NCBI GenBank assembly: GCA_034664295.1
Contig: JAXDHV010000014.1
Location: 1-64,000 of the forward strand
Origin: Solirubrobacteraceae bacterium
GTDB taxonomy: Bacteria > Actinomycetota > Thermoleophilia > Solirubrobacterales > Solirubrobacteraceae
DNA: 64,000 nucleotides
Reading direction: 5' to 3'
The position numbers and the translations under genes are program-made. The stretch's first letter is position 1; the number at the start of each line of letters is the position of its first letter. The notes under the pieces were generated by a model that had not been told where the DNA came from, made no database searches, and saw only the letters and a program-made list of their open reading frames with translations. Of the stretch, positions 16,703 through 40,555 are shown piece after piece.

Positions 16703-16849
16703 GTGAGCGGTGCGAGTGGTGATGAGGCAGCGGTCGCTGCCGCGGAGGATTCGCCCGCAGAGAGCCTCCCGTCCGACGCGCAGGAACTTGCCGACGCGCA
16801 GCCGGAGCCGGATTCCCGCGTGACGCCAGACCCACCGCCGGCGCCATGA
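16703..16849 (+). CDS. small acidic protein (48 aa), hypothetical
   Basis: GTG start with a GGGAGG Shine-Dalgarno 8 nt upstream. Its stop overlaps the lysozyme ATG (ATGA). Composition is D/E/A/P-rich. Confidence 0.3.
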   Translation: MSGASGDEAAVAAAEDSPAESLPSDAQELADAQPEPDSRVTPDPPPAP

Positions 16850-19252: not shown

Positions 19253-20173
19253 ATGAGGAACGGATGGCAGTCGGTCTCCTACGAGACGTGGAGCGCGACC
19301 TGCGACACCCTCCACGCGCACACGCAGGTTCTCGGCAAGCTCGCCGTCGCCCTCGCGCCGCCCGAACCCCAACTCCAGCATGCCGCCCTGCGGCTGACCG
19401 CCCGCGGCTGGGAGACCGGCCCCCTGCCCGCACCCGGCGGCTCGGGTGCGCTGGTCGTCGCGCTCGACCTGCGCACCCACGAGGCGGTCGCCGAGCACAC
19501 CGGCGGCGGTGTCCGCCGCGTCGCGCTCACCCCGGACCGGCCGGTCGGCCAGGTGACACGTGACCTGCTCGCGGCCGTAGCCGAACTTTCCGGCCCGGTC
19601 ACGATCGACCCGACCCCCCAGGAGGTCCCGTGGACGGTCCCGCTCGACGAGGACGACCACCACGCCACCTATGACACCGACAAGGTCGCCTCGTACTTCG
19701 CCGCCGCGGCCCAGGCCGCCCTCGTCCTCGCCGCCTTCCGCGCGCCCTTTCGCGGGCGATCGACTCCCGTCAACGCCTGGTGGGGCTCCTTCGACCTCGC
19801 CGCCAACCTCTTCTCCGGCCTACCGGCCGAGCCGCCGGCCCCGGACTTCATCATGCGCAACTCGATGGACGTCCAAGAGGTCGCCGTCGGCTGGTGGCCG
19901 GGCGATCCGCGCTACGGAAAAGCCGCCTTCTACGGCTACACCCACCCCGCCCCCGCAGGGTTCGCCGGTGCCGAGCTCGCCCCGACCGAGGCCCGCTGGG
20001 AGGCAGCCCTCGGGGAATACGTCCTCGACTGGGACGACGTCTGCGCGAGCCCCGACCCCCACGCGTGCGCACTCGAGTTCGCCCGCTCGGTCTTCCACCA
20101 CGCGTGCACCGTTTGCAATTGGGATCCCGCCCTCTCGGCCACCGCCGACGCGATCCCGCCGCCCGTCGCCTGA
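19253..20173 (+). CDS. conserved hypothetical protein (DUF5996-like)
   Basis: ETWSATCDTLHAHTQVLGKL N-terminal block, typical of a widespread uncharacterised family. The family assignment is from memory. Confidence 0.5.
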   Translation: MRNGWQSVSYETWSATCDTLHAHTQVLGKLAVALAPPEPQLQHAALRLTARGWETGPLPAPGGSGALVVALDLRTHEAVAEHTGGGVRRVALTPDRPVGQVTRDLLAAVAELSGPVTIDPTPQEVPWTVPLDEDDHHATYDTDKVASYFAAAAQAALVLAAFRAPFRGRSTPVNAWWGSFDLAANLFSGLPAEPPAPDFIMRNSMDVQEVAVGWWPGDPRYGKAAFYGYTHPAPAGFAGAELAPTEARWEAALGEYVLDWDDVCASPDPHACALEFARSVFHHACTVCNWDPALSATADAIPPPVA

Positions 20174-20193
20174 CCGGCGCCCGACGACGAGCC

Positions 20194-20325
20194 CTAGTCG
20201 TCGTCGCTGTCGATGCCGAGCAGATCCTCGTCGGCGACCGGCAGGAGCGTCTCCGGATCCTCGTCGTCGAGCAGGTCGTCGGGGTCCAAGGCCTCGGCGT
20301 CGTCCCAGGCTTCTGAAGCCTCCAT
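20194..20325 (-). CDS. small highly acidic protein (43 aa), hypothetical
   Basis: MEASEAWDDAEALDPDDLLDDEDPETLLPVADEDLLGIDSDDD. No clear Shine-Dalgarno. Below the ORF-track size cut-off. Confidence 0.25.
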   Translation of the reverse strand: MEASEAWDDAEALDPDDLLDDEDPETLLPVADEDLLGIDSDDD

Positions 20326-20395
20326 GTCCGGAAGGATAGGCACCGTCCGACGAGTGTCAAGTCCGGCAACCACTCGGCAACGCCGACACTACGAC

Positions 20396-22372
20396 CTAGC
20401 GGCTGCCCGGTCCGTACACGGCGTAGCCGAGATCCCTGAAGAGGGCCCGCTCCCCGGCCAGGCAGCGAGCCGCCGTGAACGCCCGGAAGCCCGGGAAGAC
20501 GAACGTCGTCACGACCACCCACCCGGCCCGCGCCCTCGCCCGCACCGCCCCGCACGGCTCCTGCGCCCCGATCAACTCGAGCCGGTGCTGGAAGCGATCC
20601 CCGACCAGCGTCGCGACCGTCAGGTCGGCCATCGAGATCGTCGCCGACCCGTCGACGTAGCCGGGCTGGCGGTCAAACCAAGCCACCGGCCCGACGAACG
20701 GCGCGTCGGCGGCCGCGACCGACCGCCCGAGGAACCCGCCCGACCCCCACGCCAGGCCGAGCGCGAGCCCCAGCCCCGCGACGATCCCGACACCGGCCAG
20801 AGCAATCCGCCCGGGTCCCCCCCGGCCCACCAGTCCAGCCGCCAACGCCGCCGAGGCCCCGCCCGCCAGGCCGAGCACCAGCCACCCGGCCGGTGGCGTC
20901 TCGATCGACGTCGGCACGTACCTGCTCGCCCCCGCCAGGTTCACGACGAGGCCGGCGCCGAGCAGTCCGAGCGCAACCGTGCAACCCCTGCGACTCGCTC
21001 GCCCCAGCAGGCCGACCGCCACCCCCGCGGCCACCAGCACCGGCAGGACGTAGCGGTTCGTCGACGCCGTCAGCTCCCAGAGCCCGGGGTTCGTCGGTGC
21101 CCCGGTGACCGGCGCGCTCGCCCACCCCAGCAGACCCAAACCGACCGCCCCGCCCGCCAGGACGACGGGCCGCCGGCGGCTGACCAGCGCGCCGAGCAGG
21201 CCCCCCGCGAGGAGGATCCACGCGCCGCCGAGCTGCCATGTGTATGAGTCCCTGTAGATCTTCACCGGCCCATCGATCGTCGCCACCGGCCGCGACAGGA
21301 ACGACGGCTCGAGCGGCACGAGGAAGCTCGGGACCGGATCGCCGCCCCGCAGGCTGAGAAACGGCCACAGTGGCGAGCCGTGATCTAAGAAGTCACGCAC
21401 GTACCAAAGGCCGCCGAGGACCCCCGCCGCGACCACGGCCGGCCCGAGCCAGGCCGACATCCCGAGCAGCCGCCGCCGGTGCACCCACCCACCCGCCAGG
21501 AACACCAGCACCACCTCCGGCGCCACGGTCGTCTTCGTCCCGACCGCCAAGCCGCCCGCGAGCACGCCCGCCGCGAGCAGCCGCGGCCGCTCGATCGAGC
21601 ATGCGACCAGCGCTCCGCAGACCGCCAGCCAGCAGACGCCCGGCAGATCGGTTCCCGCGGTCGGGATCTGCTGGAGGAGGACCGGGACCGTTCCGAGGAC
21701 GCCCACGCAGAGGCCGCCGATCACGGCCGGGACGCGGAGCGCCCGGAGGCCGACCGATCCGGCCGCGAGCAGGAGGAGGTAGAGCATCGGGCTCCACAGG
21801 GTCGGCCCCGCGAACCCCCGCGAGATTCCCGCGATCCACGCGAGCGCCACCTCGTTGGTCAGGGGATAGCTCCCGAACGGGAGGTCGTAGCTCAGCGAGA
21901 CTGTCGATCCCGGCCGGCCGTTGCGGACCCACGCAGCCACGTCGTTGAGGTGGTACAGCGCCGCGTCGATTCCGATCGTCGGGTTCGCGATCAGCCACCC
22001 GCAGATCGCGACCCACCCGCCGGCGGCGGCTCCCCACGCGAGCCGCTCGGCCCGCGTTCGATCAGCCCACCATCCGGCCGCCGAAAGGCGCAGACCCGGC
22101 GGACGGGGACGGCCGGGGGCTGGCCCGGCGAGCGCGAGGCGGGTGAGCGCCCACGTGAGGATCGCTGCCCCCGCCAGCAGCCACGCCGACGATCCGAGCG
22201 AGAACAGACCCAGGCCGAGCGCCTCCAGCACCGCAAGCGACGTCGCGATCGGCGCGGCCGCGACGACGCGCACGAGGCCATCGCCCCCAAGTCGCCCAGC
22301 CACCCGCAGGCCGGTCGCGGCGAGCACGGCGATCGCGAGCACGAGGAGCACCTCGTGTCCTGCACCGCTCAC
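20396..22372 (-). CDS. large polytopic membrane protein, putative GT-C-fold glycosyltransferase (paralog 2)
   Basis: 658 aa. GTG start with a GGAGGG Shine-Dalgarno 8 nt upstream. Shares the conserved blocks of paralog 1 (YHLN, AWVRNGRPGS, YPLTNEV, GTKTT, SPLWP, LEPSFLSRP). Confidence 0.6.
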   Translation of the reverse strand: MSGAGHEVLLVLAIAVLAATGLRVAGRLGGDGLVRVVAAAPIATSLAVLEALGLGLFSLGSSAWLLAGAAILTWALTRLALAGPAPGRPRPPGLRLSAAGWWADRTRAERLAWGAAAGGWVAICGWLIANPTIGIDAALYHLNDVAAWVRNGRPGSTVSLSYDLPFGSYPLTNEVALAWIAGISRGFAGPTLWSPMLYLLLLAAGSVGLRALRVPAVIGGLCVGVLGTVPVLLQQIPTAGTDLPGVCWLAVCGALVACSIERPRLLAAGVLAGGLAVGTKTTVAPEVVLVFLAGGWVHRRRLLGMSAWLGPAVVAAGVLGGLWYVRDFLDHGSPLWPFLSLRGGDPVPSFLVPLEPSFLSRPVATIDGPVKIYRDSYTWQLGGAWILLAGGLLGALVSRRRPVVLAGGAVGLGLLGWASAPVTGAPTNPGLWELTASTNRYVLPVLVAAGVAVGLLGRASRRGCTVALGLLGAGLVVNLAGASRYVPTSIETPPAGWLVLGLAGGASAALAAGLVGRGGPGRIALAGVGIVAGLGLALGLAWGSGGFLGRSVAAADAPFVGPVAWFDRQPGYVDGSATISMADLTVATLVGDRFQHRLELIGAQEPCGAVRARARAGWVVVTTFVFPGFRAFTAARCLAGERALFRDLGYAVYGPGSR

Positions 22373-22699
22373 GGTTGAGCCCTCCCCCACGGCGCGGAGG
22401 CTAGACCATCCAGCCGATTGTGCTACTGTCACTCCGCAGGCTCGGTCCCCGAAGATGGTCATCTCACACGAGATGTCTGCACTGATCGACTGAGCCGAGA
22501 CGGAGCCGACGCGCTCCTCCACACTGCCGGGTCCGGATGTTCCCAAGCGGGCTCGGCCACACCGGCGGCGCTCACCAGTCCGCCAAAGCCAGAGCCGGAG
22601 TCGCCTTGCGCGGCCTGCCCGCTTCGACGCGCTCCGCCTTCCACGCCCGAACGCCGCAGACGTCCGTCTGTGCAGGGCATACGACAGAGAGAAAACATC

Positions 22700-23341
22700 A
22701 TGAATCGCCATCACCAACGGCTCCGCAACGGAATCGTCGCCTCCCTGACCGGCGGCCTCGCCGTCTTCGGAGTCGCGACCGTCGCCCCCGTCGCCGCCAA
22801 TGCCGCACAGGCCTGCACGAGCACGATCAGCGGCGCACACAGCGGTGTGATCAACGTTCCGGCCCAGCAGACACTGTGTCTTCGCAACGCCGTCCAGGAT
22901 GGTGCGGTGAACGTCGCCCCGGGCGGCGGCCTGTCGGTGCTCGGCTCGACCGTCACGGGTGCCGTGACGCTCAAGGCCGGCTACTCGAGCCTGACCTTCT
23001 GCGCCAGCCAGACCGTTCGTGGCGCGATCTCGGCGACCGGCGGCTCCGGTCCGGTCGAGATCGGTGGCGCCGGCCTGCTCGGCTCGCTGTTCTGCCCGTC
23101 CAACACGATCGACGGTGCGGTCACCCTGGATTCCAACCTCGCCGGCGTGACGCTCGCCGGCAATCAGATCAACGGTGCGGTGACGGCCAGCGCGAACCTC
23201 GACGGGACGACGATCTCGGGCAACCGGATCGCGGGCTCCCTGACCTGCACGACGAATGCCCCGCCGCCGACGAACGCCGGCGTGCGCAATGCGGTCGGTG
23301 GCGGCCGCTCGGGCCAGACCTGCTCGGTGCTCACCTTCTGA
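22700..23341 (+). CDS. secreted repeat protein (beta-helix-like G-x-V-T repeats), hypothetical
   Basis: Signal peptide (LTGGLAVFGVATVAPVAANA), periodic roughly 22-aa repeats (GSTVTGAVTL.., NTIDGAVTL.., NQINGAVTA.., NRIAGSLT) and paired Cys residues. Confidence 0.55.
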   Translation: MNRHHQRLRNGIVASLTGGLAVFGVATVAPVAANAAQACTSTISGAHSGVINVPAQQTLCLRNAVQDGAVNVAPGGGLSVLGSTVTGAVTLKAGYSSLTFCASQTVRGAISATGGSGPVEIGGAGLLGSLFCPSNTIDGAVTLDSNLAGVTLAGNQINGAVTASANLDGTTISGNRIAGSLTCTTNAPPPTNAGVRNAVGGGRSGQTCSVLTF

Positions 23342-23395
23342 GCCCGGCCATCCCCCCGGCCGCAGCCGGCCGGGGGGATCGGCGATGATGCCGGC

Positions 23396-24238
23396 GTGCC
23401 GATCGATGCGACCGTCGCGCCGGGTCTCGCCGAGCGGATCGAGGCGATGAGCTGGTACCACACGATGGACCTCGGTCCCGGCCTCGTCACGCCCGGCTTC
23501 TTCGACACCCGGCCGACCGTCGCCCGCGTACCCCTCCCGGAGTCGCTCGCCGGGATGCGCTGCCTCGACGTCGGCACGTGGGACGGCTTCTGGGCCTTTG
23601 AGATGGAGCGGCGCGGCGCCGCTTCGGTCACCGCGATCGACATCGAGGATCCCGCGCGGTGGGACTGGCCGCCCCAGACCCGGGTCGGCGAGCACTACAC
23701 GAGCGGTCGGCAGATCCTCGACGAGTTCAAGGGCGGCGGTCAGGCCTTCGCGCTCGCCCGCGAGGCCCTCTGCTCGCAGGTCGAGCGAGTCGACGTCAGC
23801 ATCTACGACCTCGACCCCGACGTCCACGGCCGGTTCGACTTCGTCTTCCTCGGCAGCCTCCTCCTCCACCTCCGCGACCCGATCCGCGCGCTCGACCGCC
23901 TCCGGGGGGTCTGCGGCGGTGAGCTCGTGATCGCCGAGATGGTCGAGGCGATCCCGTCGTGGCTGCGCCCCCGGACGCCGACCGTCCGCCTCGAGGGGAT
24001 CGAGCGGCCGTGGTGGTGGCAGCCGAACGTCGCCGCCCTCCACCGGATGGTCGAGAGCGCCGGCTTCGAGATCCTCCGGCGGACGCCGATCTACTTCCTC
24101 CCCCACGGCGCCGCCCATCCGAAGGCCCCCCGGCGGGCGATGGTCCGCCTCGCTCTCACCCCGGCCGGCCGAGAGCAGCTGATCGGCGTCTGGCGCGGCC
24201 TCCCCCACGCCGCCGTGCTCGCCCGCCCCGCGGCCTGA
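23396..24238 (+). CDS. class I SAM-dependent methyltransferase, CmoB/DUF1698-like (paralog 2 of 3)
   Basis: WYHTMDLGPGLVTPG, LDVGTWDGFWAFEMERRGA and LHLRDPIRAL. The start could be GTG 23396 or ATG 23446. Confidence 0.75.
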   Translation: MPIDATVAPGLAERIEAMSWYHTMDLGPGLVTPGFFDTRPTVARVPLPESLAGMRCLDVGTWDGFWAFEMERRGAASVTAIDIEDPARWDWPPQTRVGEHYTSGRQILDEFKGGGQAFALAREALCSQVERVDVSIYDLDPDVHGRFDFVFLGSLLLHLRDPIRALDRLRGVCGGELVIAEMVEAIPSWLRPRTPTVRLEGIERPWWWQPNVAALHRMVESAGFEILRRTPIYFLPHGAAHPKAPRRAMVRLALTPAGREQLIGVWRGLPHAAVLARPAA

Positions 24239-24251
24239 TCGGCAGGCGCCC

Positions 24252-25760
24252 GTGAGCGCGAGTCCGCCGCCCGAGGTTCCCGAGGACGCGCCCGACAGAG
24301 TCCCGGCCGAGGCGCTCGGCCTCCGGCGGCGGGCTGCCCGCGGGATGCTGATCAACGCCGTCTTCCTCGCCGGCCTGACGTCCCTCGGCCTGCTCAAGGG
24401 CTTCGTCGTCGCCGCGTTTCTCAGCCGCACCGACTACGGCGTCTGGGGCCTCCTCGTCGTGACGCTCGGAACGCTCAGCTGGCTCAAGCAGATCGGCGTC
24501 TCTGACCGCTATGTCCAGCAGGACGACGACGACCAGGAGCTGGCCTTCCAGCGGGCCTTCACGCTCGAGATCCTCTTCAGCGGGGCCTTCTGCGTCCTCG
24601 CGGCGGTCGTCGTCGGTCTGACCGCCGTCCTCTACGGCCGGGCCGGGCTCCTCGCTCCCGGCTTCGCCCTCCTCCTGACGATCCCCGCCTACATCCTCCA
24701 GTCACCGCTCTGGGTCTTCTACAAGCGGATGGAGTTCCTCCGCCAGCGCCGGCTCGAGGTGCTCGAGCCGATCGTCGGCTTTCTCGTCACGGTCGGCCTC
24801 GCGATCGCCGGCGCCGGCTACTGGAGCCTGATCGTCGGGATGGTCGCCGGCGCCTGGATCGGCGCGCTCGCGATCCTCCGGGCCGCTCCCTACCGGCTCG
24901 CCTTCCGCTACGAGGCGGGGACCGTCCGCCAGTACATCAGCTTCTCCTGGCCCCTCGCCCTGGCCGGGGTCGGCGGGATCATCGTCGCCCAGAGCTCGAT
25001 CATCGCCGGGAACGCCGCCCTCGGGTTGGCCGGTGTCGGCTCGATCGCCCTGGCCAGCTCGATCGTCCTGTACACCACGCAGGTCGACCAGATCGTCAGC
25101 CAGACGCTCTACCCGGCGATCTGCGCCGTCTCCGACAAGCCGGATCTCCTCTTCGAGTCGTTCGTCAAGTCCAATCGCCTCGGCCTGATGTGGGGCGTCC
25201 CGCTCGGCGTCGCGATCGCCCTCTTCATGCCGGACCTCGTCGACTTCGGGCTCGGCGCCCGCTGGCGGCCGGCCCTCGCCCTGATCCAGATCTTCGGCCT
25301 GATCGCCGCAGCCGACCAGATCGCGTTCAACTGGGACGACTACTACCGCGCACGGGCCGACACGCGACCGATCGCGGTCGTGAGCATCGTCACGATGCTC
25401 GCGTGCGTCACCACGGCGATCCCCCTCCTGCTGATCGACGGCCTGACCGGATTCGGAATCGGCATGGCGTTCGCCGCGGCGGTCGGGATCGCCGGTCGGA
25501 TCATCTACATGGTCCGCCTCTTCCCGTCCTTCGGCGTCCTCCGCCACAGCACCCAGGCGATCCTCCCGACGATTCCGGGAGCCATCGTCGTGCTGGTCCT
25601 CCGCGAGCTCGACGGTCGCCGGACGGTCGGCGTCGCGATCGGCGAGGCGGCCGCGTTCCTACTCGTGACGGCGGCCGTCACGCTCTACCTCGAGCGGCCG
25701 CTGCTGCGCGAGGTCACCGGGTATCTGCGCAATGCGCGGGGAGCGGCCGGCGGGGCCTAA
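24252..25760 (+). CDS. Wzx-like polysaccharide/oligosaccharide flippase (MOP superfamily)
   Basis: 502 aa with about 12-14 TM segments, typical of polysaccharide biosynthesis flippases. Confidence 0.75.
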   Translation: MSASPPPEVPEDAPDRVPAEALGLRRRAARGMLINAVFLAGLTSLGLLKGFVVAAFLSRTDYGVWGLLVVTLGTLSWLKQIGVSDRYVQQDDDDQELAFQRAFTLEILFSGAFCVLAAVVVGLTAVLYGRAGLLAPGFALLLTIPAYILQSPLWVFYKRMEFLRQRRLEVLEPIVGFLVTVGLAIAGAGYWSLIVGMVAGAWIGALAILRAAPYRLAFRYEAGTVRQYISFSWPLALAGVGGIIVAQSSIIAGNAALGLAGVGSIALASSIVLYTTQVDQIVSQTLYPAICAVSDKPDLLFESFVKSNRLGLMWGVPLGVAIALFMPDLVDFGLGARWRPALALIQIFGLIAAADQIAFNWDDYYRARADTRPIAVVSIVTMLACVTTAIPLLLIDGLTGFGIGMAFAAAVGIAGRIIYMVRLFPSFGVLRHSTQAILPTIPGAIVVLVLRELDGRRTVGVAIGEAAAFLLVTAAVTLYLERPLLREVTGYLRNARGAAGGA

Positions 25761-28352: not shown

Positions 28353-29063
28353 GTGGAGTTGATCGACAGGGCGCTCGCGGCCAGCTGGTACCACGTGATC
28401 GAGCTCCAGCCGGGAACGGTGACCCCCGGCTGGTTCGACATGCGGCCGTTCGTCCCCCAATACGGGCTGCCGGACCGGCTCGACGGGCTCCGGGTCCTCG
28501 ACGTCGGGACGTGGGACGGATTCTGGGCCTTCGAGCTCGAGCGGCGGGGGGCGGCCGAGGTCGTCGCGCTCGACCTCGACCACGAGGCGGACCTCGACTT
28601 CCCGCCCCGCCGCCGGCCCAGGGAGTTCCCGACCCGCCTGCGGGGCGAGAGCTTCAAGATGGCCCACGAGCTGAGGGGATCGAAGGTCAGGCGGATCGAC
28701 TGCAGCATCTACGACGCCCGGCCGGAGGACCTCGGGACCTTCGACCTCGTCTTCTGCGGGTCGGTGATCATGCACCTCCGCGACCAGTTGCTCGCCCTCG
28801 AACGGATCGCCGCGCTCTGCACGGGGACCTTCGTGTCAGCCGAGGAGTACGACCGTCTCGCCGAGCTGATCCCCTTCCCCGTCTCCCGATACCGGGCCGA
28901 CCGCGACGCAGCCGTCGTCTTCTGGCTGCCGAGCGCCCGCACCTGGCGGCGGATGCTCTGGACGGCGGGGTTCGACCGGGTCGAGGAGAAGGCCCGCTTC
29001 ACGCTCGAGTCGACCAACGGGATCCACGTCCGGCACGTCGTCCACCATGCGCACAAGCGATAG
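28353..29063 (+). CDS. class I SAM-dependent methyltransferase, CmoB/DUF1698-like (paralog 3 of 3)
   Basis: WYHVIELQPGTVTPG, LDVGTWDGFWAFELERRGA and MHLRDQLLAL. Confidence 0.75.
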   Translation: MELIDRALAASWYHVIELQPGTVTPGWFDMRPFVPQYGLPDRLDGLRVLDVGTWDGFWAFELERRGAAEVVALDLDHEADLDFPPRRRPREFPTRLRGESFKMAHELRGSKVRRIDCSIYDARPEDLGTFDLVFCGSVIMHLRDQLLALERIAALCTGTFVSAEEYDRLAELIPFPVSRYRADRDAAVVFWLPSARTWRRMLWTAGFDRVEEKARFTLESTNGIHVRHVVHHAHKR

Positions 29064-29082: not shown

Positions 29083-30384
29083 TCAGACGATCTTCGGCCG
29101 GTAGCGGACGAGCCGCGGGAGGCGCAGCAGCGCGCGCGGTGACCCGCGGACCTTGAAGCGGCGGCCGAGGATCGGACCGATCGGGGTGAGTCCGCGGGCG
29201 GCAAGATCGATCCAGTCCTTCCAGGAGCTCTCGATCGTCACGTCGGCAGTCGGCGCCTCGCCGGCGACGGGGCGGGCGGTGCTCGAGTCGATCAGGACGT
29301 GCCATGGGAGGGCATCGGTGAACCGCCACTGGATGCACAGCGGCCGGGCACCGGTACGGGTCGGGTCGACCGACGCGGCGACCGTGTCGAAGAAGAGGGC
29401 CTGAACCTCCGGCGTGATGTCCAGCGGCCGGTTCGGCTCACCGAGCACGCCGGCCGCGGTCAGGAGGATCACCCGCCGGGCGATCTCCTCGTCGCCGAGT
29501 GAGAAGTCGACCGGGAAGACCCCGCGGGGCATCTCCTCGACGGGGAAGCCGGCCGCCCGCCACTTGCTGCGGATCGAGCCGATCCCGAAGGCGTAGATGT
29601 CCTCGAGCTCGAACCCGTAGCACCGGGTGTACGAGCGGTCCCAGTTCGGGGGGACGAACACCCCGGCGACGTAGCGGAGGACCTCGGCCATCAACTCGGC
29701 GACCGCCGACTTGCACTCTTCCGACTGGGCGAAGCAGTCGGCCAGGGTCTTCACGCCGAAGCCGATGTGCCGCTGCTCGTCGAGTGAGACCATCGTCATC
29801 CCCTCGCTGAATCCCGGCATCCCCCCCGACTTGGCGAAATGTGCCTCGATGAAGTGCTGGCCGGGCTGGGCGAGGGTCGCCTCCACCACCATGTGGTAGA
29901 GGGCGATCGCCTGGGCGAACTTCGGCAGCGACCGGTCCCTCCGGAGCTCGTCGGCCATCCGATCGAGCCGCTCGAAGACCCGCCGGTATCCCCAGCTCTG
30001 ATCGACTCGGCTGGCGGCGACCGTCTCGGCGATGCCGCCGGTCGAGCCGATCACGTCGGTGAAGAAGCGATGGAAGAAGACCGCGTGGCGCGCCTCGTCG
30101 ACCTGCTGGGTCGTCAGGAAGTACTTCTGATCGAGCGTCGGCGCCGCGTCGATGTACGGCGCCAGACTGACGGCGACCGAGTCCTCGCCGGCCAGGAACA
30201 TCGAGTACAGCCAGACCGCCGACTTCCGCTGGATCTCGCTCAGGCCGGCCCACCCGGCGACGTCTTGCGTGAAGTCGATCGTCGTCGCCCGCCACTGGCC
30301 GTGCTGCTCCCAACGGCGGTAGAGATCGACGTATGAGATCGCGTCGACAGGGCTCGACTGGCCCGGATGAAGCTCTACGGCCAT
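29083..30384 (-). CDS. R2-like (ferritin-like di-metal carboxylate) oxidase fused to a C-terminal SCP2 sterol-carrier domain
   Basis: R2/R2lox metal ligands in order: E (MFLAGEDSV), ExxH (DEARHAVFF), E (MVVEATLAQ), ExxH (DEQRHIGFG). The C-terminal about 120 aa (…KDWIDLAARGLTPIGPILGRRFKVRGSPRALLRL) is SCP2-like. Confidence 0.7.
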   Translation of the reverse strand: MAVELHPGQSSPVDAISYVDLYRRWEQHGQWRATTIDFTQDVAGWAGLSEIQRKSAVWLYSMFLAGEDSVAVSLAPYIDAAPTLDQKYFLTTQQVDEARHAVFFHRFFTDVIGSTGGIAETVAASRVDQSWGYRRVFERLDRMADELRRDRSLPKFAQAIALYHMVVEATLAQPGQHFIEAHFAKSGGMPGFSEGMTMVSLDEQRHIGFGVKTLADCFAQSEECKSAVAELMAEVLRYVAGVFVPPNWDRSYTRCYGFELEDIYAFGIGSIRSKWRAAGFPVEEMPRGVFPVDFSLGDEEIARRVILLTAAGVLGEPNRPLDITPEVQALFFDTVAASVDPTRTGARPLCIQWRFTDALPWHVLIDSSTARPVAGEAPTADVTIESSWKDWIDLAARGLTPIGPILGRRFKVRGSPRALLRLPRLVRYRPKIV

Positions 30385-30517
30385 CGTGACCTCCTCTTGG
30401 ATCCTGTCGGCCGTCCCGGCCCTGACCTTGTCCTGCCAACCTCTGTCGCCGCAGTTTCCCCAGGCATAAAGCGCGCCATGCCAGCCACGACGATAGCGGG
30501 GTCCTCTCGCCCGGCCG

Positions 30518-31129
30518 TCACGCCCGGTGGACGGCCCCGAGGAGGGCGGCGTATGAGCGAATCAGCGCGGCCCGCTCCGCGGCGATCAGCGGGCTGTGCG
30601 GGTCGCATCCGGCGGCGACCCAGGCATCTGACTCGCGCATCGCGACGGCTCGTTGGACCGCGGCGGCGCGGACGGTCTCCGGCGCGACGCCGTAGACGTG
30701 GCTGTAGAGCGCCGCCAGCGCATCGGCCAGGAGATCCACGGTGTTCGGTGCGCTGTCCGTCGAACCGCCCCGCGGGGTGTCCGGCGATCCGCGGTGCTGG
30801 TCGGCTCGGTGGATCGCCCACCATTCGACCTCGAGCCGGGCGGCCTGCTCGACGTCGAACTCCTCACCGTGGCGAACGGCGACCAGGCGGTAGAAGCTCC
30901 GCATGCACCGCCGGGCCAATTCGGGGTCGTTCTCGGGGTACGGCGCCCAAGCCTGGTTGGCCCGCAGGACGAGCCATGCCCCGCGGATTGCGTGCGGCCA
31001 CCGGAGAGCGAAGCCGTGGCGAGTCAGGCCGACCGCGGCCCAGAGGAACGCCGGCCAGTCGCGGAGGTAGTAGGCGACCCACGCGCGGGCTTCGAGCTCG
31101 CCGACGCGGCGCGGGTCGAACGAGCGCAT
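30518..31129 (-). CDS. conserved hypothetical protein
   Basis: Protein-like sequence (ARAWVAYYLRDWPAFLWAAVGLTRHGF...). Internal ATG chosen as start. Confidence 0.45.
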   Translation of the reverse strand: MRSFDPRRVGELEARAWVAYYLRDWPAFLWAAVGLTRHGFALRWPHAIRGAWLVLRANQAWAPYPENDPELARRCMRSFYRLVAVRHGEEFDVEQAARLEVEWWAIHRADQHRGSPDTPRGGSTDSAPNTVDLLADALAALYSHVYGVAPETVRAAAVQRAVAMRESDAWVAAGCDPHSPLIAAERAALIRSYAALLGAVHRA

Positions 31130-31179
31130 CGGGCTCGGTCGGCCGGGGGTCGGTGCGGTGCGCCTTCCACCGTGGCGGC

Positions 31180-32472
31180 TCACCTCTCTGCCCGGTCGGG
31201 CCGGCCGGTTCGTCGGTGCCCTTCGGCCGAGCCGCTCACGTCTGAGATCCTCCCGACCGAGCCGCTCGTGTCTGAGCTCTCCCAGGTTCGGACGGCCTCC
31301 GCGAGGACGGCTTCGACACGGGTGTTGAAGGCGGCGTCGGTGTGCGCCCGGGCGGTCCGCAGTCCCCCGTGGCGAAGCTTCGCCCTCAGCGCGCGGTCAT
31401 CCGCCAGCTGCGTCAGCCGGTCGGCCAGTGCGGCCGGATCCCCCGGGGTGTAGAGCAGGCAGTTCTCGCCGTCCCGGAGATACTCGGCCGATCCGCCGGT
31501 CCCGGTCGCGACGACCGGGCGCTCGCAGGCCATCGCCTCCAACGGGACGAGTCCCCAGGGCTCGGCCCACTCGACCGGGAAGACGAGGACGTCGGCACCG
31601 GCGTAGACGGGGGGCAGGTCGTCGCGCGGGCGCGGCCCGTCGAATGTGACCCGATCGGCCAGCCCGAGGTCGGCGACGAGCTCCCGGAGGGCGAAGAGGC
31701 ATGTCTCGTCTCCCCCACCGACGACCCGCAGGCTGGCCTCGGCCGGTAGGAGGGCGAGCGCACGGATCGCGGTGGCGATGCCCTTGCGAGGATCGATCCG
31801 CCCGACGTAGAGCAGCCGCCAGGCCCACTCGCCGGGAGGCGACGATCCGTCGAGGAAGGTCGGGTCGATTCCCCCGTGAGCGACCTCCGACCGGCCGATC
31901 GCGGGCCACCGCTCGAGTGAGGCACGGCGGGTGTCCTCGGATGCGAAGACGAAGCGGGCGCTCGCCTGGGGGTCGAATCTGGCGGGCAGGCCGGTGACCC
32001 GCTCGAGCAGGTCGGCCGAGACGCCGGGCCGGGTCGCGAAGCGGATCCAGGCATCGACGAGGGGTCCGTAGATCAGCCAGGCGTCGTTGACGAAGGCCAC
32101 GGCCGGAAGCCCCTGGCGGCGAGCCCGCTCCAGCAGGGAGAGCGACATCCCCCCCATCGCCCACCAGGCGACCACGTCCGGCCGGAAGTCCTCGAGGTGT
32201 CGATCGAACGTCGCCGCGTTGTGGCGCTCGAGCCCGAGCCGGGCGCGGGGGCCGAGCCGGGGGAAGACATGGTCGCGCCAGTACCACCGAAGATCCCGAT
32301 GGACGTCGGGTGGGTCTGGAAGGTCGGCTGCGGAGACTTCCCGGTGGTCGCTCGCGAGGACGCGGACGTCATGGCCCCGAGCGCGGAGGTCCTCGACCGC
32401 AGACTGCCACACCAGCTCGTACCCGCCGAGGTGGTGCGGCGGGTACATGCTCCCGACGCAGAGGATCCGCAC
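31180..32472 (-). CDS. GT4-family glycosyltransferase
   Basis: EPWGLVPLEAMACERPVVATGTGGSAEY motif. GTG start. The 3' end contains an imperfect 26-bp direct repeat (SDTSGSVGRISDVSGS). Confidence 0.8.
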   Translation of the reverse strand: MRILCVGSMYPPHHLGGYELVWQSAVEDLRARGHDVRVLASDHREVSAADLPDPPDVHRDLRWYWRDHVFPRLGPRARLGLERHNAATFDRHLEDFRPDVVAWWAMGGMSLSLLERARRQGLPAVAFVNDAWLIYGPLVDAWIRFATRPGVSADLLERVTGLPARFDPQASARFVFASEDTRRASLERWPAIGRSEVAHGGIDPTFLDGSSPPGEWAWRLLYVGRIDPRKGIATAIRALALLPAEASLRVVGGGDETCLFALRELVADLGLADRVTFDGPRPRDDLPPVYAGADVLVFPVEWAEPWGLVPLEAMACERPVVATGTGGSAEYLRDGENCLLYTPGDPAALADRLTQLADDRALRAKLRHGGLRTARAHTDAAFNTRVEAVLAEAVRTWESSDTSGSVGRISDVSGSAEGHRRTGRPDRAER

Positions 32473-32490: not shown

Positions 32491-32916
32491 CTAGACGTCG
32501 ACCCCCTGGCCGTGTCGGTAGGCACCGACGACGACGACGATCGCCAGCAGAAATCCGAGATAGGCGCCGACCCCGAGGAAGCTCGTCTCGGCGAAGTACT
32601 TCATCAGGAGGAAGAAGACGACCAGCGCGGCGACGGCGCAGCGGGTCATCGCCCGACCGAGCTGGGTCGTCGGGACCCTCGTCTGCGGACGGAACTCGTC
32701 GAGGGCGAGGTCGACGACGACGGCGATCGTCAGGAGGAGAGCGAGGACACCCCAGAGGGCCCCGGGGGCGGCGGTCGCCCGGACCGAGAAGGAGATCTGC
32801 GCACCGAGCAGGGCGACCGAGCTGTGGAGCCACGGGAGGAAGAGGAGGTCGACGATCAGGAGGATCCCGCCGGCGCCGACGAGCAGGTTGTCGCGACCGA
32901 GCTTCGACAGATCCAT
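32491..32916 (-). CDS. small integral membrane protein (3-4 TM), hypothetical
   Basis: 141 aa with hydrophobic segments throughout. Confidence 0.5.
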   Translation of the reverse strand: MDLSKLGRDNLLVGAGGILLIVDLLFLPWLHSSVALLGAQISFSVRATAAPGALWGVLALLLTIAVVVDLALDEFRPQTRVPTTQLGRAMTRCAVAALVVFFLLMKYFAETSFLGVGAYLGFLLAIVVVVGAYRHGQGVDV

Positions 32917-35460: not shown

Positions 35461-35615
35461 AGGGTCGCCGCGGTGCCTTAGGTTCGCCTCATGAGGACAC
35501 CGACAGCGAGCGTCGTGAGCACCCACCGGGGGTCCGATGGCGGGGCGGCTTCGCAGCCGCGGGCCTCGGCTTCCGGGCGCGTGGACTCTCGCTCGGACAA
35601 GGGGCTTTGAGAATC

Positions 35616-36845
35616 ATGACCGCAGCAGCAACAGCAACAGCGACAGCGACAGCAACAGCACCAGGGCCAGAGCACCCGCACGCGCTGGACTTCGCCGAGG
35701 GCCGCGACGACGGGTCCCCGAGCATCGAAGAGGTCCGCGGGTTCTTCGAGCAGTATCGAGAGCACACGAAGATGCCGGCCGAGGAGTACGTGAGGCGCCT
35801 CGCCGATGTCGAGGCCGAGATCGCGATTCACGGCACCTACGTCCACACCACCGACGAGCTCACCGTGGGTGCGCGGCTGGCCTTTCGCAATCATCTGCGC
35901 TGCATCGGCAGGCCGTACTGGCGCTCGCTCGCCGTCCGCGACTGCCGCCACCTGACCTCGGCCGACGAGATCGGCCGCGGTTGTATCGAGCACCTCGAAA
36001 CGGCCGCCAACCGAGGAAAGGTCCGGCCGGTCATCTCCGTTTTCGCGCCGGACGGTCCGCGCGGCCGCGGCCCTCGCGTACGCAACCGCCAGCTGGTCTC
36101 CTACGCCGGATATCGTCTCCCCGACGGATCCGGTCTGGGAGATCCGCAGGGCATCAAGTTGACCGAGCTGGCTCAGAGCCTCGGCTGGTCCCCCGGCACG
36201 CCAGGCCGCTTCGATCTCCTGCCGTTGGTCATCGAGACCCCGGACGGACGGCTCGGTGTCCACGAGATCCCGCCGAGTGCCGCACGCGAGGTCCCGATCT
36301 CTCACCCGACGATTCCGGCGCTCTCCGAGTTGGGGCTGCGGTGGTATGGGTTCCCAACGGTCAGCGACATGGCCCTGTCGATCGGCGGTATCACCTATCC
36401 GCTGGCTCCGTTCAGCGGATGGTACGTCGCGCCTGAGATAAGCGCCCGTGACTTCACCGATCCCCACCGGTACAACCTCCTCCCGCAGATCGCCTCCGCG
36501 TTCGGGCTGGACACCAGGACACGAGGGTCGCTGTGGCAGGACCGCGCGATGATCGAGCTGACTGCGGCGGTCCTGTGGTCCTTTGAGCGCGACGGCATGC
36601 GGATCGACGATCACCACACGGCGAGCGACCGGTTCCACCGTTGGACGCTGGCCGAGAGCCGCCACGGACGAGAGGTCGACGCCGAATGGGCATGGATGAT
36701 TTCACCGCTATCGCCGTCTGCGACGCCTGTGTTTCACCAGACCTACCCCGCACGCCAGCGGTGGCCGAACTTCGTGCGGTTGCCCGGGATCGATGACGAC
36801 ATGCCCAAGGCAACCTGTCCGTACCATGGGCCCGGGCGGACGTGA
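35616..36845 (+). CDS. nos: nitric oxide synthase oxygenase (bacterial NOS)
   Basis: Aligns block by block with Bacillus/Deinococcus NOS: YVHTTDEL, heme-thiolate RCIGRPYW, HIETAANRGKVRPVISVF, LVSYAGY, GDPQ, FDLLPL, EVPISHP, WYGFPTVSDM, GGITYPLAPFSGWY, DHHTASDRF, WMISPLSPSATPVFHQ. The N-terminus carries a (Thr-Ala)n tract. Confidence 0.9.
   Translation: MTAAATATATATATAPGPEHPHALDFAEGRDDGSPSIEEVRGFFEQYREHTKMPAEEYVRRLADVEAEIAIHGTYVHTTDELTVGARLAFRNHLRCIGRPYWRSLAVRDCRHLTSADEIGRGCIEHLETAANRGKVRPVISVFAPDGPRGRGPRVRNRQLVSYAGYRLPDGSGLGDPQGIKLTELAQSLGWSPGTPGRFDLLPLVIETPDGRLGVHEIPPSAAREVPISHPTIPALSELGLRWYGFPTVSDMALSIGGITYPLAPFSGWYVAPEISARDFTDPHRYNLLPQIASAFGLDTRTRGSLWQDRAMIELTAAVLWSFERDGMRIDDHHTASDRFHRWTLAESRHGREVDAEWAWMISPLSPSATPVFHQTYPARQRWPNFVRLPGIDDDMPKATCPYHGPGRT
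35620..35665. repeat. hexanucleotide microsatellite (ACAGCR)n inside the NOS N-terminus
   Basis: gcagcagca acagca acagcg acagcg acagca acagca encodes AAATATATATATA. In-frame unit length is 6 bp. Confidence 0.75.
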
Positions 36846-36867
36846 GCATCGGCTCCGGCAGGCAGTT

Positions 36868-38178
36868 CTAGGCAGGACCCGTCTCGCCGGCGGCGACGGG
36901 CGCTGGGCTCGTGACCCGCAGGCTCAGCAGCTGCTCGACTCGACGGGCTGTCGCGTGGATGCGCTCGGGATGCTCGCCTGGGGTCAGCCGTTCCCGGACG
37001 GAGAGCAGTCCGCACATGTCGAACCCCGCCGGGGCGGCCGCCACGGCATCGCCGACCGCGGCGAGCGGATAGTAGGCGCGGAAGGCGGGATCCTGCGCGG
37101 CCGGGCCCGCCGAGTTCTCCGCGACGATGCCGGTCCGGTAGACGAACCTGATGCACGTGGCCATCCGGCCCGGGTGGCGTTGTCGCGCGTAGCTCGCAGC
37201 CTGATCGGGGTCATGCAGCAGGGCGAGCAGGTGGAGCTCGACGAGATCGATCGCGTGGACGTCGAGGATGTTGCGATAGACGTGGCCACCGCTGATCCGG
37301 GTACTGAACTCCACGACGTGATACCGCCCGTCCCGACCGCGCCGAAGCTCGACGTTGAACAGGGCGTGAACGAGATCGAGTGAGGCCACGAGTGCCGCCA
37401 CGACCCCGACGATCTCCTCCTCGGAGCGGTCGTCTGGCAGCGGCAGCGTGTACAGATCCTCCTCGAAGCACGGGCCCGGGCCGACGTACTTTGCGTGAAT
37501 CCCGCCGAGGTGGAAGTGGCCATCGATCACCACGCCATCGCAGGTCACCTCGTCGCCGGGCAGGTACTCCTCGATCAGGGCCCAGACGTCCGGGAGGTCG
37601 TCGTAGAGGTAATAGACGCGTGAGTTCGCAAAGGCCCGGATGCCCGACAGGGCCGCTCGAACGGCGCGATGATCGCTGGCAAGCACGACGTGGGCGCTGT
37701 TGCCCCCTCGCGTCGGCTTGACGATCCAGGGGCCATCGAGATCGGCGAGCGCGGCGATCGCCGCCTCCTCGTCACGAACCTCCAGGAACGAGGGCGAGGG
37801 TATCGGGTGCTTGGCCAGATGCAGACGCTGGAGGCGCTTGTCCCGGGCGATCGCGTCGGTGGCCGGGCGCGCCCAGGGGACCCCGGCGCGGGCGTTCGCC
37901 TCTCCGACGGCGACGATATCCGCTTCGAGGTAGGTCACCGCGCAGCGGGCGCCGGACTCGTGGATCCGCCGCTCGGTCGCCTCGGCGAGGTCTTCGGTCG
38001 TCGACCCCGAATCGATCAGCGTCACCGTGGCGAACCGCGGGTCGGCGGTTGCCGCCGCCGACTCGCTGACGAGGTGGATCTCCAACCCAAGGCGTGACAT
38101 GCACTCCAGGTGGTCGAATCTCGGGCCGAGACTGTGCCTCATGACGAGGACGACGGGTGTGTTAGTCAGCGCCGACAT
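36868..38178 (-). CDS. ATP-grasp domain ligase (paralog 1)
   Basis: PWIVKPTRGGNSAHV, LIEEYLPGDEV and FNVEL motifs of the ATP-grasp fold. Confidence 0.75.
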   Translation of the reverse strand: MSALTNTPVVLVMRHSLGPRFDHLECMSRLGLEIHLVSESAAATADPRFATVTLIDSGSTTEDLAEATERRIHESGARCAVTYLEADIVAVGEANARAGVPWARPATDAIARDKRLQRLHLAKHPIPSPSFLEVRDEEAAIAALADLDGPWIVKPTRGGNSAHVVLASDHRAVRAALSGIRAFANSRVYYLYDDLPDVWALIEEYLPGDEVTCDGVVIDGHFHLGGIHAKYVGPGPCFEEDLYTLPLPDDRSEEEIVGVVAALVASLDLVHALFNVELRRGRDGRYHVVEFSTRISGGHVYRNILDVHAIDLVELHLLALLHDPDQAASYARQRHPGRMATCIRFVYRTGIVAENSAGPAAQDPAFRAYYPLAAVGDAVAAAPAGFDMCGLLSVRERLTPGEHPERIHATARRVEQLLSLRVTSPAPVAAGETGPA

Positions 38179-39493
38179 CGGGAGTCTGCCTTTCGGTTGA
38201 GAGCCGTGCGGCCATGACGATGAGCGCCACGGCGGTGAAGCCGCCGATCAGACAGACCAGCGGGAGTGCGCTCGAGGCATGCGCGTAGATCAGCGCACCG
38301 CCCGCGGGACCGAGCGCGAACCCGAGCGTCTGGGCTGCCACGAGATAGGACTGATAGCGCGCGACCCTGCCGTCGGGAGCGATGTCGGCCATCGCGTTGC
38401 CTGCGACGGGCGCCAGCAGCATCTCCCCGAAGGTCCAGACCAGGACCCCGCCGGCCACCACGACGGTCGCGCCGGACGCCAGGCATGCCGCCATCCCCGC
38501 GGCGATCAGTCCGGCTCCAAGTCCGAGCGGTACGCGCGGAGACCCGCGACGGGTGAGCGAGCTGATCGGAAGCTCTGCGGCGATCACGATGACCGCGTTG
38601 AGGGCGAGCAGGGCGCCGAAGAGACGCGGGGTGTGTCCGGCCGCGGCGAGGTGCAAGGGCAGGGTCGCGGTGTGCTGGGCATAGACGGCCGCGACGCAGA
38701 AGAAGGCGCTCAGCATGAGCGGGAGCGTGATCGCCGGACCTGCACGGTCCGTCCGGCCCGGCCGAGCAGCGTCGGCCGCGCCCGGGTCGGGGTTGCCCGG
38801 GTCCCACGCGCCGCCGTCGGCCGCGTCGGCCTCGAGTGCACCTGCGGTCGGCGGAGGGCCGGGCGGGGTCCGAGGGAGGCCGACCAGGATCACGAGCGCG
38901 AAGGCGGCGCTGGTCACCGCGTCCACGACGAACAGCGCCCCGTAGGAGTGGGCGGCGATCAAGCCGGCGGTGAGGCCGGCGATCGCAGCGCCGACGTTGA
39001 GGGCCAGACGAAAGAGCGCAAACAGGGGAACGCGCTCCTCCGGGCGGCTGAAGTCGACGAGCAGGGCGCTGGCGGCCGGCACGTAGGATTGGGTGCAGAA
39101 GCCCGACAGACAGACCGCCGCGATGACGGTCGGCCGAGTCGGCGCCAGGGCGACGCACGCAAGGCTCACGGCCGACGCCGCGGCTGACGAGACGAGCGCC
39201 GCGCGCCGGGAGAAGCGGTCGGCGATCCAGCCTCCGGCGAGCGAACCGAGCATCCCGGCGGCGGCGATCGCCGCCAGGATGACCGGCAGGCTGGCGAGCG
39301 CAATTGCCCGGCTCGTCAGGAAGAGAGTGGCGAACGTCGCGAAGTAGGACCCCATCCGGTTCACCAGGACGCCGGCCACGAGGATCCAGACGGGACGCGG
39401 GGCGGTGCGGAGGATCGTCACGACGGAGCGAAGCACCGGCTTCTCGCCGCCGTTCGCCGCCACGGTGGGGATCCGGCGAGGCCGGAGGGGCAT
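38162..39493 (-). CDS. MFS transporter
   Basis: 12 TM segments. Start/stop abut both ATP-grasp genes (TGAn ATG). Confidence 0.8.
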   Translation of the reverse strand: MPLRPRRIPTVAANGGEKPVLRSVVTILRTAPRPVWILVAGVLVNRMGSYFATFATLFLTSRAIALASLPVILAAIAAAGMLGSLAGGWIADRFSRRAALVSSAAASAVSLACVALAPTRPTVIAAVCLSGFCTQSYVPAASALLVDFSRPEERVPLFALFRLALNVGAAIAGLTAGLIAAHSYGALFVVDAVTSAAFALVILVGLPRTPPGPPPTAGALEADAADGGAWDPGNPDPGAADAARPGRTDRAGPAITLPLMLSAFFCVAAVYAQHTATLPLHLAAAGHTPRLFGALLALNAVIVIAAELPISSLTRRGSPRVPLGLGAGLIAAGMAACLASGATVVVAGGVLVWTFGEMLLAPVAGNAMADIAPDGRVARYQSYLVAAQTLGFALGPAGGALIYAHASSALPLVCLIGGFTAVALIVMAARLSTERQTPDVGAD

Positions 39494-40555
39494 TCACGGC
39501 TCCACGGAGAGCGCGCGCCCCGAGACGATCAGGTCGGCCTCGACGGCGTCGAGACGCGCGGCACACTCCTCCTGATCGGAGCCGGTGACGACGGCGAAGG
39601 CCAGCCGGGAGAGGTATTCGCGCGGAGGTAGCCTGAGCTCCTGACCGGGTTCGACGACGCTCTGAAATGACACAAGACCTGGATAGTCGGCATCTGGCCG
39701 CCGGAGTCGCACCTCCTGGATCGCTATGTCCGTCGTCGGATAGAAGAACCGGACCGCGGCAGCACCGCTCACGGCGGCGTGGATCTGAGGCGGCTCGCCC
39801 ATGGCGGCTTCGGCCGCGGCACGGCTGACGTCGACACCGAGCGCCAGCAGCCCGAGATAGGGGATCAGGTCGCCACCCAGGCGGCTGTTGAGCTCGATCA
39901 GGCGGGGACCCCTGGGCGTGAGGCGGAACTCGGTGTGGGTGACGACTCGGTCGAGGCCGACGAGGCGGTGTACACGGCTCACCTGGGCGAGTGCGCCATC
40001 CAAGCCGGCAGTGGGTCGGGGAGGAACGATGTGGCCGAGCTCCTCGAAGTACGGTGCGAGGCCGACGACCTTCTCGGCGACGACGAGCGGTGTCGTCACA
40101 CCCGCGACCGTGATCGAGTCGACGCTGTATTCGGGTCCTTCGAGGTACTCCTCGATCAATACGCCGTCGTAGGAGGAGACCGTCGCACCTATGCGGGCAC
40201 CCGCCGCCGCCAGGAAGGCGCCTGCGATCTCAGCCGGGTCGGAGACGCGAACGACGCCGGCACTACCTCCAAGTCCGCGGGGCTTGAGCACGATCGGGTA
40301 GCCGATCGCCTCCGCCGCGCGAACGGCGGCGGCCAGGTCATGGGCGACGGCGAATCGCACTCCGAGACCCTCGTGTTCGGCGAGCAGAGCCCGCAGCCTG
40401 GCCTTGTCCTTACACGTGCGAATCGCTTCGGAATCGCAATACGGCAAGCCGAGCTCGCCGGCCAGGTCGGCACACAGCTCCACGTAGCGCTCGTCCCAGG
40501 TGAGCAGCCCGGTCGCGCCGGACTCGGCCGCGAGGTCCCTCGCACTCCGCGACAC
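39494..40555 (-). CDS. ATP-grasp domain ligase (paralog 2); true N-terminus probably extends to about 40790
   Basis: GYPIVLKPRGLGGSAGV and LIEEYLEGPEYSVD motifs. In-frame upstream sequence encodes the expected pre-ATP-grasp strand (RALLLVGSGYQAY) but contains no ATG/GTG/TTG. Confidence 0.7.
   Translation of the reverse strand: MSRSARDLAAESGATGLLTWDERYVELCADLAGELGLPYCDSEAIRTCKDKARLRALLAEHEGLGVRFAVAHDLAAAVRAAEAIGYPIVLKPRGLGGSAGVVRVSDPAEIAGAFLAAAGARIGATVSSYDGVLIEEYLEGPEYSVDSITVAGVTTPLVVAEKVVGLAPYFEELGHIVPPRPTAGLDGALAQVSRVHRLVGLDRVVTHTEFRLTPRGPRLIELNSRLGGDLIPYLGLLALGVDVSRAAAEAAMGEPPQIHAAVSGAAAVRFFYPTTDIAIQEVRLRRPDADYPGLVSFQSVVEPGQELRLPPREYLSRLAFAVVTGSDQEECAARLDAVEADLIVSGRALSVEP

Follow-up and report, generated by a model that had tools for sequence, protein, structure and literature searches.

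The window, by which we mean the whole 64,000-nucleotide stretch of DNA analysed here, carries on its minus strand a complete gene for an oxidase of the R2lox type that is fused to a C-terminal SCP2 domain. The product is best described as a member of a distinct SCP2-fused R2lox subfamily, and the R2lox-SCP2 fusion constitutes a large, undescribed family of soil actinobacteria. We consider it fairly probable that the protein works in the cytoplasm as a soluble, O2-dependent R2lox-type oxidase and that its own SCP2 domain serves to carry a substrate with a long aliphatic chain, probably a fatty acid. A first-pass annotation had read this open reading frame (29083-30384) as an R2-like oxidase fused to SCP2; the fusion inference is sound, as both halves were confirmed by sequence profile and by fold.

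The gene and its features

The third-position GC content (GC3) of the open reading frame is 0.92, a coding signature as is usual for genuine genes in this window, whose overall GC content is about 71%. The following features were located, all of them on the minus strand:

29083..30384, minus strand: complete R2lox-SCP2 fusion gene, 433 aa, stop codon included (from the ORF listing)
30390..30395, minus strand: Shine-Dalgarno sequence AGGAGG, 5 nt 5' of the ATG at 30384 (direct sequence reading)
29530..30342, minus strand: R2lox-like ferritin-fold di-metal oxidase domain, aa 15-285
29767..30186, minus strand: span with the catalytic and signature codons, E67 to H206 (alignment to GkR2loxI; invariance in 118 homologs)
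30184-30186, 30094-30096 and 30085-30087, minus strand: metal-ligand codons E67, E97 and H100
29881-29883, 29776-29778 and 29767-29769, minus strand: metal-ligand codons E168, E203 and H206
30175-30177, 30073-30075 and 29896-29898, minus strand: signature codons V70, F104 and Y163
29110..29493, minus strand: SCP2 domain, putative lipid carrier, aa 298-425 (Pfam, profile matches to solved SCP2 domains, DSSP, Foldseek)

A scan for promoters and terminators around the gene found none.

The N-terminal domain belongs to the R2lox clade

By its fold and by every signature residue the fusion protein is a member of the R2lox clade. Pfam Ribonuc_red_sm matches aa 21-235 at 8e-15, and the only strong matches among the NCBIfam models are to five R2lox models (7e-40 to 4e-18). 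With the family profile, each of the five R2lox orthologs of known structure is matched (2e-27 to 4e-20), but Chlamydia R2c no better than at 5e-6, and the best solved relative in the PDB is R2loxI of Geobacillus kaustophilus (GkR2loxI, 4hr0, 4.5e-25). An AlphaFold2 model of the whole protein reached a pLDDT of 89.9 and a pTM of 0.89; when it was submitted to Foldseek, the first 34 PDB matches were all R2lox structures.

The full R2/R2lox ligand set (E, ExxH, E, ExxH) that had been claimed for the N-terminal part is indeed there: E67/E97-x-x-H100/E168/E203-x-x-H206 aligns to E69/E102/H105/E167/E202/H205 of GkR2loxI. Furthermore, V70 and Y163 align to the pair V72-Y162 that forms the ether cross-link in GkR2loxI, and the position of the RNR radical tyrosine, four residues past H100, is taken by F104, GkR2loxI likewise having Phe there. 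All six ligands together with V70, Y163 and F104 do not vary among 118 aligned homologs (59-90% identity), and the ligand and signature residues are retained also in divergent fusions at 31-45% identity and in standalone relatives of R2lox length. We infer that the di-metal site is carboxylate-bridged and probably Mn/Fe, and a Val-Tyr ether cross-link is predicted from the conserved V70 and Y163.

The protein is just 22-28% identical to characterised R2lox proteins and missed the NCBIfam R2lox equivalog cutoffs (PRK08326 set) for five out of five models, the best score being 137.2 bits versus a cutoff of 194. As all curated equivalog cutoffs are missed, it is to be placed in a distinct SCP2-fused subfamily within the R2lox clade and not among the equivalogs, from which it could differ in chemistry.

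Three other assignments were tried and rejected. Relatives are named class I RNR small subunit by NCBI/JGI, but Phe104 stands at the position of the radical Tyr and the SCP2 domain replaces the R1-binding tail; RNR R2 models score weakly on the protein (NF010574, E 0.086), and no gene for an RNR large subunit is found among the neighbours of the window gene. Membership in the AurF or PaaA families is likewise rejected (E 0.04-0.07). The first-pass annotation had suggested PF11583 as the R2lox model to check, yet this entry is AurF and reaches an E of 0.041 here. Both names in use in databases for this family, ribonucleotide reductase subunit and phenylacetyl-CoA epoxidase subunit, are wrong.

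The C-terminal domain has the SCP2 fold

Characterised R2lox proteins lack an SCP2 domain, whereas the fusion protein adds one of about 135 aa at its C-terminus. In this protein the Pfam SCP2 match is marginal (PF02036, aa 350-425, 24.0 bits versus a gathering cutoff of 21.3) and is overlapped by a match to Alkyl_sulf_C (1.3e-5), but relatives score far more strongly with the Pfam SCP2 model (P0209, 4e-11; P0221, 1.7e-9). Over aa 339-426 the family profile matches the solved SCP2 domains of MFE-2 (6z1x/1ikt; 1.5e-5), of SCP2 and of alkylsulfatases.

The C-terminal 143 residues modelled alone (AF2) gave a pLDDT of 74.5. With this isolated model the top 46 Foldseek matches are all of the SCP2 fold, led by the C-terminal domains of the alkylsulfatases Pisa1 (4axh) and SdsA1 (2cfz) at about 2e-7 and followed by MFE-2 SCP-2L (2e-5), human SCP2, UbiJ-SCP2 (E about 5e-5) and archaeal SCP2. 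According to DSSP the domain opens with two helices, continues with four strands that form a sheet and with further helices, and closes with a fifth strand and a helix at the C-terminus. An aromatic/hydrophobic core of W353, F355, W361 and W388 is invariant in the 118 homologs. The reading of the C-terminus as SCP2-like is thereby borne out; its extent, earlier given as about 120 aa, had to be corrected to about aa 298-425 once the two leading helices are counted with the SCP2-like domain. When the C-terminal domain was used by itself as the query for homologs, only three short proteins came up.

In the alkylsulfatases (Pisa1, 4axh/2yhe; SdsA1, 2cfz) and in MFE-2 (SCP-2L, 1ikt) the same fold likewise sits C-terminal to an enzyme for long aliphatic chains. 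Their partner, however, is a sulfatase of the metallo-beta-lactamase fold or a dehydrogenase/hydratase, and here it is a di-metal oxidase, the identity being 18-24%. The C-terminal domains of SdsA1 and Pisa1 help to recruit long alkyl chains to the metallo-enzyme to which they are fused.

Distribution and architecture of the fusion family

Among 8,000 candidates scored, more than 6,320 were significant homologs, mostly from soil metagenomes of the Solirubrobacterales type. The best 120 of them are all about 430 aa long and share an identical architecture at 60-98% identity, and the named organisms among the relatives are MAGs of Solirubrobacterales/Solirubrobacteraceae. A scan of genome contigs yielded four close relatives, all in Solirubrobacterales MAGs. 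An exhaustive search of 1.84 billion representatives (50% identity clusters) gave 188 matches at E<=1e-30, among them about two dozen clusters of full-length fusions, down to 31% identity, and standalone proteins of about 310 aa. The plasmid collection held no full-length R2lox-SCP2 fusion, and our literature search found no paper describing such a fusion.

Other arrangements of the two domains exist. A reversed SCP2-SCP2-R2lox family of about 590 aa (e.g. P0252, 1,507 matches), one member of which is named Solirubrobacterales, shares with the window protein both types of domain as well as the residues for the metal ligands and the cross-link. It differs in the opposite domain order, in its two copies of SCP2, in an R2lox domain that is 35% identical and in SCP2 domains that are only distantly related. 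Its operon is conserved in three out of three loci, with an MBL-fold protein upstream (start/stop-coupled) and PAP2, LPG_synthase_TM and a Pyr_redox_2 reductase downstream. A second, small R2lox-SCP2 group (P0209, P0213, P0217 and P0229) falls together with the standalone proteins in a rough, unbootstrapped NJ tree. An SCP2 HMM built from the family of the window protein scores 43-120 bits within its own clade versus 12-27 bits on the reversed family and the second group, the reversed family accounting for 13-27 bits. This suggests that R2lox and SCP2 may have been fused independently more than once, the trees being unbootstrapped NJ trees. Finally, P0188 is a triple fusion, Abhydrolase_1-R2lox-SCP2.

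Genes adjoining the fusion in divergent relatives

A metagenome scan seeded with divergent fusions provided 80 loci; in 39 of them the fusion gene was full-length and had flanking sequence. Taking the two closest genes to either side of it across these 39 loci gave a pool of 119 proteins, in which Pfam assigned TetR 12 times, class-2 lipase nine times, amidase nine times, AMP-binding eight times, MMPL five times and methyltransferases six to seven times. A divergently transcribed TetR gene is present in 11 of the 39 loci and in at least two distant clades (unbootstrapped NJ tree).

In a sister clade that is 53-56% identical to the window protein, the genes for an AMP-binding enzyme, a class-2 lipase and the fusion protein follow each other in this order, co-directionally and with gaps of 14-118 bp, and amidase and MMPL genes lie convergent beside this set. 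These loci form a single clade of 76-93% pairwise identity and therefore count as one evolutionary observation. In L053 and L087 (58% identical), which stand next to the subclade of the window protein in the NJ tree, an Abhydrolase_1 gene is located 11 bp downstream of the fusion gene, and on a Halococcus plasmid an alpha/beta-hydrolase gene adjoins a standalone R2lox. An association of R2lox with a hydrolase or lipase, be it adjacent or fused, arose about four times, apparently independently. No linked reductase or ferredoxin partner was found in any of the contexts examined.

Proposed function and competing explanations

R2lox is a well-studied Mn/Fe metalloprotein for which dozens of crystal structures and extensive spectroscopy exist; its physiological role has been open since 2009 and there is no agreed substrate. 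To our knowledge, self-cross-linking is the only firmly established R2lox chemistry. R2lox proteins contain a Mn/Fe site, are cross-linked between Tyr and Val and, when purified, bring along C16/C18 hydroxy fatty acids, the carboxylate of which is bound to the metals (PMC9314684).

In the function favoured here, the SCP2 domain would bind a long aliphatic molecule of low solubility and pass it to the hydrophobic tunnel of the R2lox domain. The substrate would most likely be a C14-C20 fatty acid that has been split off an ester lipid; alkanes or alcohols with long chains are less likely. The reduced di-metal site may then activate O2 and oxidise the chain by two electrons, C-H hydroxylation being the most plausible outcome, with electrons presumably supplied by an unlinked cellular reductase. 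Substrate class, type of reaction and hand-over by SCP2 are put forward here as inferences. The lipase and acyl-activating neighbours described above point to acyl chains, and the earlier proposal that the fusion implies a lipid or hydrophobic substrate has gained strength from the recurrent, apparently independent R2lox-SCP2 fusions and from the lipid-type neighbours in other lineages.

The alternative that fares best, although we regard it as unlikely, is a catabolic long-chain alkane monooxygenase whose SCP2 domain solubilises exogenous hydrocarbons for growth. A paper of 2022 stated that no function had been established for R2lox (PMC9314684), and the first-pass annotation had called it unknown. 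This is partly outdated, as GkR2loxI, the best structural match of the fusion protein, was reported in 2024 to be a C10-C24 alkane monooxygenase, though from assays of crude lysates together with an E202A/H205A mutant (PMC10867098). Furthermore, haloarchaeal R2lox genes are reported to be clustered with ferredoxin and sterol-carrier-protein genes and to be induced on hexadecane (PMC9314684). This is the same functional pairing of R2lox with a carrier of the SCP type, with separate genes in haloarchaea and one polypeptide here, although in the four plasmid loci inspected by us no annotated SCP neighbour of a haloarchaeal R2lox was present. The resemblance of the SCP2 domain to the alkyl-chain-binding domains of alkylsulfatases would fit an alkane substrate as well.

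However, the identity to GkR2loxI is just 27%, and the alkane cluster of the GkR2loxI type has alcohol dehydrogenase, aldehyde dehydrogenase and beta-oxidation genes adjacent (PMC10867098). None of these adjoins the fusion gene in the window or in any of the loci inspected, about 50 in number, and alkane-degradation genes of this type are absent near the window gene and from the recurrent neighbours of the 39 related loci. In addition, in five out of five loci of the clade at about 62% identity the gene is found in a conserved block of core-genome type (LytR, ROK, class II aaRS, Lon and HSP20, often with TetR nearby). Given this setting and an identity of more than 60% across the clade, the gene looks like part of a vertically inherited core and not like an accessory gene for catabolism.

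A second explanation draws on the surroundings of the gene in the window itself. From its position between a methyltransferase gene and glycosyltransferase genes it had been suggested that the enzyme modifies the lipid moiety of a glycolipid. The neighbouring GT2/GT4 enzymes and methyltransferases would make this glycolipid, and the enzyme would act on its lipid tail by oxidation, desaturation or cross-linking. Indeed, the fusion gene is flanked by a convergent methyltransferase gene (28353-29063) and lies 133 bp downstream of, and co-directional with, the hyp221 and GT4 genes (30518-32472). The wider surroundings include two GT2 genes along with genes for a Wzx-like flippase, a phosphomannomutase (PMM) and another methyltransferase. 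This glycan arrangement is kept in three loci (L001, L002 and L004; 88-92% identity). Hyp221 is a 221-aa protein without a detectable family; it was tested as a diverged lipase and as a TetR protein and is neither.

This explanation we hold to be quite improbable. The arrangement is common only to the three loci named, and in L002 no hyp221 gene separates GT4 from the fusion gene. Synteny is gone at 72% identity (L003 and L005, where BrkB, PurU and a nitroreductase are the neighbours), at 62% (L006-L010) and in the 39 further divergent loci, while the family itself is strongly conserved across these very different neighbourhoods. As the glycan context is limited to relatives of at least 88% identity, the glycolipid inference rests on a lineage-specific juxtaposition. 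The glycan locus of the window contains neither an acyltransferase nor any other acyl or lipid enzyme, and its glycosyltransferases resemble enzymes of the EPS or MftF type; the gene set is a generic one of exopolysaccharide type. The neighbours of the relatives at 72% and 62% identity are not present in the window, nor do the lipid-type neighbours of the sister lineages (TetR, lipase etc.) occur beside the window's own gene, a point that counts against the function favoured here. The fusion gene is probably an independent unit, and its position inside an exopolysaccharide-type locus looks incidental.

Just as little weight is given by us to a role of SCP2 as a structural, oligomerisation, membrane-targeting or gating module, in which case the R2lox substrate could be unrelated to lipids. 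The pLDDT of the isolated SCP2 model and the marginal Pfam score would agree with it. But fusions recur in different orders and with SCP2 domains that are only distant relatives of each other, which is difficult to account for unless SCP2 has a functional tie to the known hydrophobic tunnel of R2lox, and the invariant core of W353, F355, W361 and W388 speaks against such a role as well.

The di-iron hydroxylase Coq7 works with the lipid-binding Coq9, and UbiJ-SCP2 with the Ubi hydroxylases, a precedent for an enzyme that hydroxylates an isoprenoid lipid (e.g. menaquinone) while SCP2 presents the polyprenyl tail. Even so, and although UbiJ-SCP2 is among the fold matches and a housekeeping role would suit the core-genome type of setting found in one clade, such an activity is highly improbable, because none of the neighbourhoods examined contained genes of quinone biosynthesis, the UbiJ matches are weaker than those to alkylsulfatases and MFE-2, the known R2lox ligands are fatty acids (PMC9314684), and the lipase and acyl-activating neighbours favour acyl chains.

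Implications for R2lox

Returning to the carrier-coupled oxidation of fatty acids, we tentatively raise the possibility that R2lox in general works as a two-part module with a carrier of the SCP2 type, complemented by an ester hydrolase, that this module was fused at least two to three times (counting the forms R2lox-SCP2, SCP2-SCP2-R2lox and hydrolase-R2lox-SCP2), and that the Solirubrobacterales fusion is a core enzyme oxidising fatty acids that ester lipids have released. If this is true, its own carrier domain would make the fusion protein the best experimental handle on the true substrate and reaction of R2lox. The fusion, the reversed paralog, the triple fusion and the operons with lipase, acyl-activating and MMPL genes are Rosetta-stone evidence for a long hydrophobic substrate delivered by a carrier. 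The fusion protein is also a practical reagent: its ligand should stay bound during purification, and a version without SCP2 can be compared with it. The family is abundant in soil Actinomycetota (Solirubrobacterales), and the annotation as RNR or phenylacetyl-CoA epoxidase subunit that it currently carries is corrected here.

Standalone R2lox genes were met also in other surroundings: in Haloferax and Haloterrigena beside genes for an NADPH:quinone oxidoreductase and for ACP, KAS and FabG, and in Streptomyces inside an NRPS cluster.

Lipid-type gene neighbourhoods of R2lox proteins

In a sister clade with 53–56% identity to the window's R2lox-SCP2 protein (loci L057, L060, L065, L070, L076, L077 and L052), the fusion gene is the last of a compact, co-directional set in the order AMP-binding enzyme, class-2 lipase, R2lox-SCP2 (for instance L070:3647-7254), in which the lipase is sometimes present as a tandem duplicate. 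Downstream of the fusion gene come an amidase gene in convergent orientation and a gene for an MMPL transporter. Of the five loci from the clade whose fusion genes are about 62% identical to the window's protein, four (L006, L008, L009 and L010, positions about 1-1750) carry Mce/MlaD lipid-uptake genes approximately 6–7 kb upstream of that gene, an association that, coming from one clade, is inseparable from simple synteny.

A repeated association was also observed between R2lox and alpha/beta-hydrolases. It appears as a domain fusion in P0188, a 731 aa protein, truncated at its end, with the architecture Abhydrolase_1-R2lox-SCP2 and the hydrolase N-terminal, and as adjacent genes in the loci L053 and L087, where the hydrolase gene lies 11 bp downstream of the R2lox-SCP2 gene (L053:1596-2471; L087:7262-8137). 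On a Halococcus dombrowskii plasmid a standalone R2lox is directly followed by an alpha/beta-hydrolase gene (L017:4967-6094).

Further standalone R2lox-like genes are located on two other haloarchaeal plasmids:

L015:5004-10626, Haloferax mediterranei pHME505
L016:1-6991, Haloterrigena turkmenica pHTUR01

In both, the R2lox-like gene precedes one for an NADPH:quinone oxidoreductase and adjoins a set of ACP, KAS, holo-ACP synthase, malonyltransferase and FabG genes, a fatty-acid synthesis cluster of a bacterial type not expected in archaea. None of the four haloarchaeal R2lox loci inspected showed an annotated SCP gene.

A second large family with reversed domain order

The P0252 family, of about 590 aa, is a second large family, in which the domain order is SCP2-SCP2-R2lox and thus reversed with respect to R2lox-SCP2. 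Solirubrobacterales carry this family as well. Three of its genes were inspected in their context:

L011:8001-9761, P0361
L012:8001-9761, P0317
L013:8001-9788, P0401

The surrounding operon is conserved in all three loci. Upstream, and start/stop-coupled, is a gene whose product of about 218 aa has an MBL fold; downstream are PAP2_3, LPG_synthase_TM and a Pyr_redox_2 reductase, and a cytochrome oxidase/CtaA/CtaB cluster adjoins the operon.

Further genes of the window

Four genes of the glycan locus deserve description:

23396-24238, (+), methyltransferase
28353-29063, (+), methyltransferase
30518-31183, (-), hyp221, predicted helical
32491-32916, (-), hyp141, small and hydrophobic

The two methyltransferases are paralogous (about 44% identity), show distant similarity to TIGR04290/CmoB and enclose the part of the locus that holds the GT2 and flippase genes. 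Neither hyp221 nor hyp141 has a detectable family. The start of hyp221 overlaps the GT4 stop at 31180-31183, and the protein is conserved at 83% in L004 but no copy was detected in L002. The other protein, hyp141, is probably a membrane protein.

The minus strand also holds an open frame of 1,344 codons (20396-24430), which overlaps well-supported plus-strand genes (23396-24238) and is probably a high-GC artefact. No gene was called confidently in 20173-23396. Genes for a phage-type lysozyme (16846-17520) and a VanY-like D-Ala-D-Ala carboxypeptidase (18129-18812), with a glutamine synthetase gene nearby, may represent cell-wall remodelling functions or a prophage remnant.

A gene with a bacterial nitric-oxide-synthase oxygenase domain (35607-36845; Pfam, 4.6e-127) adjoins an MFS transporter gene and two genes that resemble ATP-grasp ligases. 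The group, kept in L004, may form a small natural-product or nitration-type cluster (35607-40555).
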